From NCBI GenBank assembly GCA_038087875.1, contig CM075990.1, forward strand, positions 7,504,001-7,568,000: a DNA stretch of 64,000 nucleotides. Reading direction: 5' to 3'. The notes beneath the pieces are model-generated. The model was not told the origin of the DNA. It did no database searches and saw nothing but the letters and a program-made list of their open reading frames with translations. This document shows positions 1,045 through 63,980 of the stretch, in pieces. A program made the translations under genes and the position numbers. Position 1 is the stretch's first letter. Every line of letters starts with the position of its first letter. The DNA is from Malacoraja senta. Taxonomy: Eukaryota.

Positions 1045-1209
1045 TGTTTAAGAAGGAACTGCAGATGCTGGAAAATCGAAGGTAGACAAAAATGCTGGAG
1101 AAACTCAGCGGGTGAGGCGGCATCTATGGAGCGAAGGATTTAGGCGTTGCCTATTTCCTTCGCTCGTCGATGCTGCCTCAGCCGCTGAGTTTCGCCAGCA
1201 TTTTTGTCT
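1045..1209. mobile_element. Fold-back PLE terminal-repeat dimer (subtype A), ribozyme core deleted
   Basis: Two inverted copies of the AAGGAACTGCAGATGCTGG...CTCAGCGGG...GCATCT unit; 13-bp TSD ACCATTCTCTCCA at 1032-1044 and 1210-1222. Confidence 0.8.
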
Positions 1210-1527
1210 ACCATTCTCTCCACGTCACTACTTTCAAAATCTAGGATGCATTTTATCAGACCCTGACATTGTTGATAGTTTCATAAATTTGTCCAGTGCT
1301 ATTTTTTCCGAATACTGATTTTTTTTTCTTTTCCACTTTCACTATTGGCCCATTATTCTCAATCATTTCCAACAGATATTTTGTCTTATTTCACAAAGGC
1401 ACAAAATATCTACTTAATTTCTCGTCATATTCCACAATTGCTTTCTTCTTCTCCTCCGTCCAATGTGGCCTAAATTGACCTGCTATTATTTTGTTTTTGC
1501 CAATTCAAGGATGTCCGACAACTTGCT

Positions 1528-1733
1528 TGGGAAGGAACTGCAGATGCTGGATTGAACCGAAGAGAGACACAAATGCTGGAGTAACTCAGCGGGACAGGCA
1601 GCATCTCTGGAGAGAAGGAACGGGTGACGTTTCGGGTCTGAAGAAGGGTCTCGACCCGAACATCACCCATTCCTTCTCTCCAGAGATGCTGCCTGTCCCG
1701 CTGAGTTACTCCAGCATTTTGTGTCTATCTTCT
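1528..1733. mobile_element. Fold-back PLE terminal-repeat dimer (subtype B)
   Basis: Inverted arms; central CTGAAGAAGGGTCTCGACCCGAACATC. Confidence 0.8.
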
Positions 1734-2559
1734 GTTTGTTTGTTGGTTTCTATGTTCCTCTCTAGATTAACGTCATACACTACTCGCCCTTCCCCAGTCA
1801 ATGCTCTGGTCCTTATTCGCTCAGTCCTGATACCTTTCTCATCCTCAAGTTTGATGTTTATTCTGACAGCTTTATAATCCTTCTCCATTGATCTAATACT
1901 GTCTAAGTTCTCTTGTTACATCGCACCACTACCTTGCCTGTTGAGTTTTCATGACTTAAAGGGACATACAACTGCTATAACCCAAATATCTTTTATATGT
2001 CAGTCATTAGTTGTTCACTGGTCATACTTTGTAATACAGTTTTCCAATGTACCGTAGCCAACTGCAGGCTTCATGGTTCTGTGGATGTCGTTATTTATAT
2101 TTAAGACCACGGCTTTAGGTTGAACTAATTAACGTTCAATCTTGACATGAAATTCTAGTCATACCCTGCTCACTCTTCATTAATGGCCCTGAAACTGTCA
2201 TACTGTTAATTAACCCTTCACATGGTCACAACACCAGAGCTAAAATAGCCAGATCCTTCAGTGGAAAAATAAGAAATGCTGGAATCTTGAGCAGAAAAAC
2301 CAAATTGCTGGAGCAACTCAACAGCATCTATGGAAGGAAATTGGCAAGATAATGTATCTGGTTGGGCCCTAATTCAGACCGGAATGAGATCCCACACTGA
2401 TTCAACAGCATATTGATCTAGAACACCAGCTCTGTATACAATATATTTGTACTCCATAATATTGGTGGTAATTGGTAATTTGGTTTGCTTCATTTATATG
2501 CAGCCATAGATTATACAGAATCATGGTACAGAAATCGGCCCTTTGGCACAGCTTGTCCA

Positions 2560-2990
2560 CGCTGACTTTAAGATGAGTGGAGAAAGATTGAATAGGATGA
2601 GTGGAGAAAGATTGAATAGGAACATGATGGGCAAGTTGTGTATAGAAAGGTTGGTAGGTATGTGGAACGAGCTGCCAGAGGAGGTAGATAAGGCAGGTAC
2701 CATCACAATGTTTAAGAAACATTTAAACAAGTTATAGACACAAAATGCTGGAGCAACTCAGCGGGACAGGCAGCATCTCTGGAGAGAAGGAATGGGTGAC
2801 GTTTCGGGTCGAGACCCTTCTTCAGGCTGAGAGCGGGAGGGATTAAGATTTAAACAGGTTCATGGATAGGGTAGGTTAAGAGGTATATGGACCAAACTGA
2901 AGCAGGTGAGACTAATGTAGATGGGGCATGTTGGTCGGCATGGGCAAGATGAGCCGAAGGGCCTGTTTCCACGTTGTATGATTCTATGAA
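2560..2990 (+). mobile_element. CR1 3' fragment with a 24-bp tandem duplication at its 5' junction and a nested PLE repeat (2735-2826)
   Basis: WNELPEEV motif; GATGAGTGGAGAAAGATTGAATAG x2 at 2572-2619; tail GAGCCGAAGGGCCTGTTTCC. Confidence 0.75.
2798..2825 (-). ncRNA. Minimal hammerhead ribozyme core (PLE-associated)
   Basis: Reverse complement CTGAAGA-AGGGTCTCGACCC-GAAACGTC: CUGANGA box, stem II GGGU/ACCC, GAAA box, palindromic ACGU, GUC triplet. Confidence 0.7.
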
Positions 2991-3585
2991 TGTGATGCCT
3001 ATATATGCTAGTCACATTGGACCAATATTTCTCCACTCCTTTCCCAGCATCTGTCCAAATGCCTTTTAAAAGCTGCGATGCGTTACTTGTGTATAGCTTG
3101 ATGGGACTCCTGTATTGTATGGTTTCATTTGACTGGATAGCACACAAACAAACGTTTTTCACTGTACCTCGGTACACGTGACAATAATAAACCAATATCA
3201 ATTCCAATACCAATTATATTTACCACTTCTTCTGGCAACTTATTCCTTATAACTACTGCCCTCTGTGGGAATAACATGCCCCATAGATCTCCTTGAAATC
3301 TCTCCACCCGCACCTTATACCAATGTTTTAGACCATCGCTCTCTTGGAAAAGGCTCAGACTATCCACCATGTCTATGCCCCTTATAGTTTAACAAACACA
3401 TATCAACTCACCTCTCAGCATCACAGATCCATAAACCCAGCCTATCCGATCTCTTCTTATCAGTCTACCTCCCCATTCCAGGCGACATCCTGGCAGAACT
3501 CTCCTGCACCCTTTCTATTGTTATCGCATTTATCCTGCAGTGTAGAGACCAAACGTGTCCCCAATAATCCACACACAGCCTAACC

Positions 3586-3660
3586 GATAGATAGATAGAT
3601 AGATAGATAGATAGATAGATAGATAGATAGATAGATAGATAGATAGATAGATAGATAGAG
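3586..3660. repeat. (GATA)n microsatellite, expanded CR1 tail
   Basis: About 18 GATA units directly abutting a minus-strand CR1 3' end. Confidence 0.95.
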
Positions 3661-61624: not shown

Positions 61625-61793
61625 GTTTAGGAAGGAACAGCAGATGCTGATTTAAACCGAATATAGACACAAAATGCTGGAGTAAATCAGCGGGACAGGC
61701 AGCATCTCTGGACAGAAGGAATGGGTAACATTTAGGATCGAGACCTTTCTTCAGATTTAATGGGCGATGTTTCGGGTCGAGACCTTTCTTCAG
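61625..61793 (-). mobile_element. PLE terminal repeat with tandemly duplicated ribozyme segment
   Basis: Two successive TCGAGACCTTTCTTCAG segments; flanks AGAATCTA(T/A)GATG. Confidence 0.75.
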
Positions 61794-62509
61794 AATCTAA
61801 GATGCTTTGTACTGTGCTAGAGGATAAAGATCTGTAAAAAACTTATTTTTTACAGTTATAAGGAGATTAATAGTTTATAAGCACTCTAAAAGTCCAAAAT
61901 TATATTGAGTAACACTAATTAATGTTTAATCCTCAATAAATATGCTGAGAAATTTATGGGCCAACATATTGTGAATGTAGAACAAGGAACTGCAGATACT
62001 GGTTTACAAAAAAAAGACACAAAGTGCTGGAGTAACTCAAGCAGCATCACATGAGAACATGGATAGGGGCACTTTGGATTGGGACACTTCCTGACCAGAA
62101 CTGGCCTCCTCCTGCACCTATTGTCTATTGTCTATTGTCCATTGTCCATGTTCTCCAGAGATGCTTCCTGACCCGCTGAGTTACTCCAGTACTCTGTATC
62201 TTTTATTTGTATCCTTGGATGTTATTCCATTGACCGGTCAGAAATTCTGTAATAGGGTTACTGTGTGAAGGACACCATGTGAAATATACCAAATATCCAA
62301 TCCCTCATGTGTCCAATGCCCCAGAATGGCTGATTTCACGACACTCATTTCCTCGTCTGTACTAGTTCCCTGTATCCCTTTAATTCAGGAGGCATGTGGA
62401 GTAATTGGAGAGCATGCAGAAACTATTTGCCTGGATGCTGCCTGAATTAGAGGATATTCACTATGAGAGTTTGAACGAACTTGGATTGGTTTCTTTGGAG
62501 ATGGAAGGT

Positions 62510-62835
62510 CCATGTCCATTGCAATGTCCCATTGTGCAGTTGAAGATGATGCCAAGTTAAACTAGTCCTGTATACCTGCACATAATCCATCATAAGCTCA
62601 AACACCATGCTCATATCTACCTCCACCACCTCCCCTGGCAGCATTCCAGACTTTGTGTATAAACAGTAGCCCACACATCTCCTTGAACCATTCTCCCTCT
62701 GATCTTAAAACTCTGCCCTCCGGTCTTTGATATTTCCACACTGGGAAAAAGGTTCTGACTGTCTACACTATCTATGCCTCTCATAATTTTATAAACTAAT
62801 ATCAGGTCTCCCCTCAATCTCCAATGCTGAAAGAA
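62510..62835 (-). mobile_element. CR1 3' fragment
   Basis: RGDLILVYKIMRGID...LFP. Confidence 0.8.
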
Positions 62836-63037
62836 AGTACATTTTTAAGCTAGTCCTTTATCAAAAAATAAGTCCTACATTACTGGGCCAATGAAACACA
62901 TGTTTTGTTGAAGACAGAGACAAAGTGCTGGAGTATCTTGGTGTACACCCATGTTTTGTCTTCCCATTTGCCACCGTCTCATGTGTAATACCTCAGGGTG
63001 GAAGAATGCAAACTTACAATCAAATTGTTCACATCAA

Positions 63038-63295
63038 GGGCAGCACGGTGGCACAGCGGTAGAGCTGCTACCTTACAGCACCAGAAACCCGGGTTCAATC
63101 CTGACTATGGGTGCCTTCTGTGTAGAGTTTGCACGTTCTCCCTGTGACCGTGTGTTATCTCTGGGTGCTCCGGTTTCCTCCCGCATCCACAGACGTCCAG
63201 GTTTGTGGGTTAATTAGCGTCTGTAAATTGTCCCTAGTGTGGAGGATAGTGCGAGAGTATGGGGATCGCTGGTTGGCACGGACTCGGTGGGCTAT
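63038..63295 (+). mobile_element. HE1-like SINE
   Basis: A/B boxes, V-domain. Confidence 0.9.
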
Positions 63296-63649
63296 GTTAA
63301 CTCACTTAACGTGTATATGTGTGTATATACACGTTATATTTATCTAACTTAACTCACTTAACGTAAATATATATATATGTTAAATCTATATATATATACA
63401 TTGTGAATTAACAGATAAATAAATATATATATATATGTGTACGTATATATGATGTATATGTATGTATATGTGAGTATGCATGTATTTTCGCTCAACTTTT
63501 TTCCCTTGTTTGTTAAATTGGTTACAGTGTACTATGTTTACATTTTCTGTTGTGCTGCTGCAAGTAAGAATTTGTATATATATTTATCTAACTTAACTCA
63601 CATATATATATCAAATGATAGGTGATGTTTTGGGTTGGAACCCTTCTAC

Positions 63650-63980
63650 GTGTGGCTGTGTGTGTGTGTGCGTGCTCACGTCTATGGGAGTGTGTGTGCA
63701 CGCTCGCGACTGTGGGTGTGTGTGTGTGTTTGTAAATGTGCATGTGTGCAAGTGTGTGTGTGTGTGTTTGTGTATATGTGCGTATGTGTGCATGCGTGTA
63801 TGCTTGCGTCTGGATGTGTGTGCGCGTGTGTTTTTGTGTGTGTGCGCCCTCGCGTCTGTGGGTGTGTGCTTGTGTGCGTGTGTGTGCCCATGTGTGAGTG
63901 CACTCGTGTCTGCGGATGTGTGTGTCTATGCTCGCGTGTGTGCATGTGTGTGTGCGATCGTTCGTTTGCTCGTGTGTCAG
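63650..63980. repeat. Imperfect (TG)n low-complexity tract (preceded by an AT-rich tract 63300-63612)
   Basis: Alternating purine-pyrimidine repeats. Confidence 0.92.

Follow-up and report, generated by a model that had tools for sequence, protein, structure and literature searches.

Endonuclease-containing (EN+) Penelope-like elements (PLEs) of the Neptune type are described as having a pseudo-long terminal repeat (pseudo-LTR), an optional 30–40-bp tail, an inverted 5′-truncated arm and solo pseudo-LTRs (PMC8557442, PMC3846280, PMC8969392). Here, we analyzed 64,000 nucleotides of Malacoraja senta (assembly GCA_038087875.1, contig CM075990.1, positions 7,504,001 to 7,568,000; 'the window'), in which an earlier, sequence-only reading had noted a ~130-bp repeat unit bearing a hammerhead ribozyme motif, many copies of which adjoin no open reading frame (ORF). 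For these solo copies it offered two explanations, i.e., an independent, retrozyme-like family or extreme 5′ truncation of a PLE. We identify the unit as the pseudo-LTR of a Neptune-type PLE that is highly abundant, and the solo copies look like by-products of this known element rather than a separate family. Like EN+ Neptune-type PLEs, the element has an ORF with reverse transcriptase (RT), CX4CX2C linker and GIY-YIG, partial tandems, head-to-head arms, a tail on one arm, 8–20-bp target-site duplications and a unit that overlaps the 5′ leader. Unlike the published EN+ PLEs, it has solo or paired units at ~10:1 over ORF-bearing copies, and a sharp cliff of 5′ ends. Solos in Adineta are few and are read as recombination or deletion products, unlike the abundant solos found here, and the two arms of a pair frequently carry different states of a lineage marker, a discordance not predicted by the self-priming model (PMC3846280).

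The hammerhead motif resembles the minimal metazoan PLE hammerheads (PMC4209133) in its CUGANGA, the extra base before helix II, the G-C closing pair, GAAA, the palindromic CG and the UH site, as well as in the motifs being mostly dispersed singles or opposite-strand neighbors. Unlike that set, helix II is only 4 bp and there is no match to an Rfam hammerhead model; no names of cartilaginous fish were found in supplement file 2 of that source, file 1 being outside the search. The anole Poseidon element PAc (PMC11167929) is similar in having two internal starts of reverse transcription that bound the tail, with both target strands cut and extended, and in its hammerhead, dispensable for insertion, being placed near the ORF start. 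It belongs to a different clade, its ORF starts inside the ribozyme and reverse transcription starts inside the ORF, whereas here the ATG is ~160 bases downstream of the core. Animal non-long-terminal-repeat retrozymes (PMC7229834; bioRxiv 10.64898/2026.07.22.740005) share with the unit a type I motif, a non-coding nature, kinship to PLE termini and dispersed monomers. Retrozymes are tandem arrays with a motif per unit, with canonical motifs and circular RNAs in PMC7229834; the present unit is instead dispersed or head-to-head, with a minimal motif and PLE ends.

The architecture, the motif, the tail and the inverted arm are thus already published. A fixed 5′ cliff of solos, a counted long-plus-short rule for paired arms and arms of mixed lineage were not found in the available parts of the PLE and retrozyme literature (including PMC8557442, PMC2377424, PMC3846280, PMC7229834, PMC8969392, PMC4209133, PMC11167929 and bioRxiv 10.64898/2026.07.22.740005), a search that lay outside Repbase and subscription papers.

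The repeat unit is the pseudo-LTR of a Neptune-type element

A profile of the unit built on 12 window copies found 49 window segments at E≤0.01, of which 39 with at least 30 bits merged into 30 loci, in agreement with the ~30 copies first reported. The 28-base hammerhead motif itself matched the window 19 times at ≤3 mismatches and 0 times in each of 100 shuffles. In a genome sample of 100 evenly spaced 10-kb stretches, the profile gave 354 segments scoring ≥25 bits (276 scoring ≥50 bits) that cover 3.5% of bases, with 0 in a reversed control; extrapolated to an assembly size of 1.94 Gb, the genome would hold 0.5–0.7 million segments. Another 40 stretches served as a replicate.

With a degenerate ORF beside one unit (locus L026) as query, 103 places were scored of 86,721 first-look candidates, with open frames of up to 1,237 amino acids. 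The unit starts 110–130 bases past the ORF stop in 19 of 20 fetched loci, the twentieth having an expanded repeat between ORF and unit. [quoted passage not shown] A CX2-5CxxC linker before GIY-YIG is described as a Neptune/Nematis trait that is absent in Penelope and Poseidon. The linker here shows the Neptune/Nematis layout, a motif-based assignment that would fit Nematis as well as Neptune. At loci L052 and L063 the ORF start directly follows the unit's 3′ part, and L060 holds a full head-to-tail tandem. Since the unit both trails the ORF and leads into the ATG, it serves as 5′ leader as well as 3′ pseudo-LTR. The element also has partial tandems, an inverted arm, an optional tail and duplications. 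The original claim of a PLE pseudo-LTR with a minimal type I hammerhead is borne out.

The 3′ untranslated region (UTR) differs in length by subfamily, from ~85 to 340 bases, and is pyrimidine- and C-rich in all of them; at L062 (300-2985) a pyrimidine-rich tandem repeat swells the 3′ UTR between ORF and unit to ~2.7 kb. In L052 (3300-6974) and its relatives, the protein has a long Pro/Ser/Thr-rich region (~residues 160–480) encoded with 75-base repeats that vary between copies. Arrays of a 759-amino-acid ORF, which dominated the first GIY-YIG search, were rejected as partner of the unit, being a different PLE family that is not flanked by the unit profile. These RT plus GIY-YIG arrays (L019–L024, at G000:C14:18.39-18.41 Mb, C1804 and C5550; also at the start of C17) have a second ORF of ~590 amino acids upstream with a weak GDSL-like match (E 0.004), are interleaved with telomere-type hexamer repeats, and many lie near contig or chromosome ends.

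Solo copies begin at a fixed position ahead of the hammerhead core

To place the ends of copies, offset 0 was set at the first C of the core CTGAAGA, so that the predicted cut falls between +27 and +28, and 273 sampled copies were aligned to 18 ORF-linked references (3 of 276 failed to align). The 5′ ends, with those of the 133 replicate copies in brackets, numbered 25 (11) at or beyond –150, 22 (8) at –149..–31, 6 (5) at –30..–13, 10 (7) at –12..–7, 131 (59) at –6..+3, 35 (20) at +4..+12, 33 (14) at +13..+30 and 11 (9) later. Only 25 of 273 copies therefore reach at least 150 bases upstream, and the ends form a one-sided cliff at –6..+3, just ahead of the core, with ~13 ends per base against 0.2–0.3 upstream. 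Ends defined by target-site duplications agree (17 of 28 in –6..+4, counting unpaired, non-extended copies with ends between –30 and +30 only), and the sequence upstream of solos drops to background between –3 and –6, being shared in only 3 of 113 solos; in the window copy among these three, the shared sequence comes from a duplication of the head. The cliff coincides with the sequence TCAGTCT, which matches the initiator pattern YYANWYY and is common to subfamilies with differing 3′ UTRs. Solo copies without an ORF are real, discrete retro-insertions with their own duplications, as had been noted, and with non-random ends.

At the other end, duplication-defined 3′ ends form two clusters, at +88..96 and +125..133, which correspond to the optional tail described for PLEs. 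Between these clusters, a long predicted stem pairs unit positions ~+45..+55 with ~+106..+116 in all five subfamily consensuses (z-scores of –2.4 for two of five folded stretches, the rest not significant); it may position the starts of reverse transcription. The predicted cut site is no boundary of either kind: 3 of 273 5′ ends lie at +28, on a flat background, and 0 of 160 3′ ends at +25..29.

Copies that hold the ORF start behave differently at the cliff. This set comprised 20 of 40 scored young copies (from 1,265 candidates, taken as chromosome-level matches in list order with loci already sampled skipped). One ends at –5, 13 pass upstream (7 of them beyond the fetched stretch) and 6 stop at +10 to +123; three begin at +24, +25 and +32, with duplications not defined and no tie to the cut site made. 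Sampled units that reach the cliff stop there in 246 cases and pass in 85, and for the same subfamily as the ORF-start set the counts are 13 and 13 (Fisher p 0.013 against the ORF-start copies).

Three head duplications (window 61624-61794, L079 near 8151-8420 and L146 near 6308) consist of the first ~33 bases followed by a new start at about –3. Each puts two hammerhead motifs in cis; a template jump at the 5′ end of the RNA may have given rise to them. Separately, L030 (2472-2879) and L118 (6074-6230) hold a 67–68-base minisatellite derived from the middle of an old unit, whose repeats are without the ribozyme core.

Head-to-head pairs combine a long and a short arm

In a survey of 1.85 Mb and 186 loci, including loci picked because they hold the element, neighboring units were head-to-head in 102 cases and tail-to-tail in 5. 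Arms were classed as 'long' when the 3′ end lies at profile position ≥125 and as 'short' at 85–124. A long and a short arm make up 75 of the 102 head-to-head pairs, and 28 of the 30 with a duplication of at least 9 bases; in the first set, 51 of 67 pairs were long plus short against 30.2 expected (0 of 20,000 permutations). Both arms are enclosed in one target-site duplication. Arm divergence is 10.9%, against 13.6% for random members of a subfamily, deviations are shared in 54 of 306 cases between arms against 72 of 1,626 at random, and the arms agree at most diagnostic sites. Being closer to each other than to random members, and mostly in agreement, the arms come from one period or source.

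At site +59, which was chosen after looking at 13, the arms nonetheless disagree in 11 of 41 family B pairs, where a single template would predict 1.2 (p 4e-8); these discordant pairs include 6 of 12 that are duplication-flanked. Of 47 cells at linked sites in the discordant pairs, five differ in the linked direction and one in the opposite direction, and in the concordant pairs 4 of 122 cells differ; these linked differences are weak because they are C/T changes. The mixed lineages favor two RNAs per event over self-priming on one template. Gene conversion would be another possible source of the discordance. A mutation hotspot at +59 is disfavored, as A is retained there in 136 of 136 family A copies and three further sites are linked to the minor allele.

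Solo and ORF-linked copies belong to the same subfamilies

Solo and linked copies were compared by subfamily typing at hand-picked sites, column tests and nearest neighbors, using 473 copies, 74 of them extended, on a ~95-base alignment. Each of five subfamilies contains solo, paired or inverted, and ORF/UTR-linked copies. Tests for solo-specific diagnostic sites gave 2 of 457 columns at p<0.01, no more than chance. In the two largest subfamilies, 0 and 1 positions separate the solo from the extended consensus, and the two groups are alike in divergence, e.g., 1.2% and 1.2%, or 4.8% and 5.7%. These shared subfamilies, consensuses and divergences, together with the lack of tandem arrays and of ends at the cut site, leave the proposed independent or retrozyme-like family unsupported; small solo clades could be missed by typing at hand-picked sites on ~95 bases. 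Random 5′ truncation does not hold either, since the 5′ ends pile up in ten bases.

Possible origins of the solo copies

From the genomic copies, we lean, with reserve, towards solos being short complementary DNAs made by the element's own enzyme from an internal start, with run-off at the RNA 5′ end near TCAGT. The endonuclease would nick both target strands, and each nicked end would prime at one of two internal start sites, often on separate RNAs; both putative starts would lie within the leader. Reverse transcription would run off the RNA 5′ end at the initiator-like TCAGT just before the hammerhead, and on a linear RNA starting at about –3 the start sites would be only 95–130 bases in. 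Most ORF-bearing copies extend past the cliff and would accordingly derive from templates longer than the unit, i.e., read-through tandems, circles or strand transfer; circular RNA templates have been proposed (PMC4209133). The hammerhead would be a passenger that decays after insertion, and its cleavage would need a dimer and probably protein help. Consistent with such run-off, the putative start at –6..+3 matches the initiator pattern and is constant across subfamilies. A start site has been placed in the pseudo-LTR of Drosophila virilis Penelope and of Chlamys-3, an initiator-like motif is described in Adineta Pen2a, and the anole PLE has its tail delimited by two internal start sites and is templated mainly by uncleaved RNA (PMC11167929).

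Several observations weigh against run-off. The cliff is spread over ~10 bases, and there is no extra G. Gene-bearing copies mostly do not see the cliff; since only 1 of 20 ORF-start copies ends there, more is needed than one class of RNA starting at –3. Nearest neighbors agree in label marginally more often than in shuffles (0.655 against 0.575, p 0.054), and there are ~four solos per extended copy in the older subfamilies against ~one in the young, an excess that could mean secondary spread of solos.

A more specific version of the run-off reading, which we put forward only tentatively, is that PLE insertion is a two-RNA, two-primer reaction by a dimeric complex that nicks both strands. The tail site would serve as the start of one arm and the inner site as that of the other, with the two RNAs possibly paired via the hammerhead palindrome. 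Linear RNAs beginning at the initiator would give run-off units only (~3.5% of the genome), and gene-bearing copies would need circular or multimeric RNA. If true, that need would give the hammerhead its role.

The cliff could instead be a fixed pause, in which priming at the 3′ unit of full-length or read-through RNA is followed by an abort just upstream of the hammerhead, as a truncation hotspot. We regard this as unlikely, although one RNA class would suffice and 85 of 331 cliff-reaching copies go on into UTR or ORF. The stop would be placed at the edge of the C/pyrimidine-rich 3′ UTR, a composition found in all subfamilies, and its override by a processive complex is the main alternative to two template classes. 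However, a hairpin would stall the enzyme on its 3′ side (~+19) and not after the hairpin, the cliff is unchanged despite differing upstream UTRs, and the passage of 13 of the 14 ORF-start copies that reach it requires higher processivity to be assumed.

Somewhat less probable, in our judgment, is a spread resembling that of short interspersed elements (SINEs), with solos carrying their own internal promoter and reverse transcription starts, being transcribed and re-copied in trans. Both putative cis signals lie within solos, Adineta pseudo-LTRs are reported to be enough for mobilization in trans, the ORF-start result points to a separate short template, and the solo excess in old subfamilies and the discrete ends with their own duplications also fit. 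Against this, there is no solo-specific site (the 2 of 457 tests above), the consensuses differ at just 0 and 1 positions with divergence alike, and solos track every subfamily of the autonomous element.

A retrozyme origin, in which self-cleaved, circularized unit RNAs are reverse transcribed and inserted, is very improbable. The minimal type I motif with its palindromic ACGU, the published kinship of animal retrozymes to PLE termini, and the two motifs in cis at three head duplications would fit it. However, there are no tandem arrays, with 9 same-strand neighbors against 67 head-to-head within 30 bases; head-to-tail motif arrays were not found beyond the three head duplications, the L030 minisatellite being without the core; copies are not permuted at the cut site; and the core decays like the rest of the unit. 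Random extreme 5′ truncation, typical of PLEs in the literature, can scarcely be credited given the density of ends at the cliff, nor can a splice acceptor (CAG/TCTG) setting the 5′ end: despite a pyrimidine tract ahead of CAG and a D. virilis intron that ends at helix I, the putative acceptor's A and G are retained in the majority of solos (68 and 78 of 112), and upstream sequence is shared in only 3 of 113.

The copies of this family bear on the mechanism of PLE integration and the job of the hammerhead, and record mechanism in hundreds of thousands of fossil products. They give three countable rules, i.e., the fixed 5′ end, the long-plus-short arms and the mixed-lineage arms; young intact ORFs are present in this genome. 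For annotation, the copies risk being misread as SINEs, miniature inverted-repeat transposable elements or retrozymes.

The hammerhead motif is present in every consensus and decays in copies

All five subfamily consensuses carry the core, helix II, the palindromic helix III and the UH site of the minimal type I motif, including the ACGU palindrome of stem III originally pointed out. Helix I is 2 bp, as had also been observed, against a norm of ~3–5 bp for minimal type I; 2-bp cases in the published list are Culex, Drosophila and Oikopleura (PMC4209133). Motif variants keep pairing (U-A/U-G in helices I and II), with no two-sided change observed. Among copies that span the region, the core is intact in 25 of 169 from the sample and in 3 of 22 from the window, and each of these three is without one helix I pair. 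Inserted copies give no sign of selection on the core: outside CpG, changes affect 79 of 1,729 core cells and 282 of 4,878 control cells, and at CpG 24% of core and 20% of control cells; local alignment favors intact 5′ ends. The core thus decays like the rest of the unit.

An Rfam scan gave 19 weak matches in the window, none to a hammerhead family. Predicted folds do not form the hammerhead, and the predicted dimer fold has –6.5 kcal/mol against –24.6 for the best alternative, in native context and with core contacts uncounted. A 2017 study reportedly saw PLE hammerheads cleave as dimers. In published work, dimers of minimal motifs show weak cleavage, cleavage was seen for 1 of 9 Xenopus dimers, and the anole PLE motif cleaves only with protein (PMC11167929). 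Self-cleavage by the master motif is plausible and by the dispersed copies unlikely. The suggestion that host introns would be seeded with cleavage sites is accordingly weak, with 3 of 22 cores intact and none with both stem I pairs, and the copies carry little weight as self-cleavage sites in host RNA unless cleavage is shown. A strand bias was also not seen: unpaired window copies are 11 plus and 12 minus.

Copies of the unit in the window

The window holds eight head-to-head pairs, one copy with an ORF remnant (44362-44505) and five copies that reach the 3′ UTR or further. The main loci are as follows, inverted structures being given without a strand.

1032..1222: head-to-head pair with long arm 1045-1140 minus and short arm 1142-1212 plus; 13-bp duplication; no core
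1524..1737: head-to-head pair with long arm 1524-1639 minus and short arm 1635-1737 plus
2723..2829, minus: solo copy of the short type; intact core 2798-2825; without the first pair of stem I
5059..5130, minus: copy that reaches ~80 bases into the 3′ UTR of the PLE and is truncated at its 3′ end
8017..8155, minus: solo long-type copy
10745..10980: inverted structure of head fragment 10745-10777 minus and long copy 10850-10980 plus, with 3′ UTR sequence between the two parts; intact core 10851-10878 in the long copy
21809..21981: head-to-head pair
25419..25565, plus: solo copy of the long type that begins at the initiator-like motif's A; 8-bp duplication; mutation in the first base of the core
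26298..26435, plus: solo long-type copy; 11-bp duplication; broken core
32279..32535: head-to-head pair, long and short; 14-bp duplication, absent from the sequence-only reading
33518..33572, plus: copy reaching ~146 bases into the 3′ UTR; 3′ end interrupted
34016..34179: head-to-head pair, long and short
37858..38089: head-to-head pair, long and short
44026..44505, minus: the window's only ORF-linked copy, with endonuclease C-terminus remnant 44362-44505, 3′ UTR and unit 44026-44130
53689..53828, minus: solo short-type copy; 19-bp duplication; broken core
54908..55087: head-to-head pair, short and long; 9-bp duplication
55850..55979, minus: long-type copy with 3′ UTR-like sequence upstream
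57615..57767, minus: solo long-type copy of the youngest subfamily; intact core; 14-bp duplication
58826..59024: old head-to-head pair
61613..61804, minus: long copy 61624-61757 preceded by duplicated head 61759-61794; flanks 12 of 13 bases alike; two tandem hammerhead motifs, both mutated

The two motifs reported as intact, at 2798-2825 (minus) and 10851-10878 (plus), are both exact, and so are the coordinates and lengths of the six reported direct flanks. By chance, at least 8 identical bases occurred in 8 of 870 mismatched flank pairs, using windows of 35×35 bases that are somewhat smaller than the 50×50 of real loci. Four of the six flanked inserts stand as single units; those flanked at 1032/1210 and 54908/55079 are head-to-head inverted pairs. 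Of the six, insert 1045-1212 entirely lacks the hammerhead core and only 57627-57756 has it intact, the latter having the sequence of the terminus of the youngest ORF-linked elements with intact ORFs.

Surroundings of the copies

No host gene that would make the window an intron was recognized, 0 of 150 non-repeat window frames (of 401 candidates) matching Pfam, and sequence matching repeats of the sampled loci makes up ~52% of the window. ORF fragments of long interspersed elements (LINEs), L1/Tx1-like and CR1-like by resemblance, lie at 59721-60982, 3742-4203 and 43086-43733, all on the minus strand. An isolated palindrome of ~177 bases (56326-56502) is unrelated to the unit, and its match to a microRNA model is far below the gathering score. 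Outside the window, L091 (near 5120) and L226 are independent insertions of the young subfamily at one position of a common LINE-like repeat, and L057 is inserted ~90 bases from that site, a possible target preference; a related repeat lies in the window at 59470-59633.

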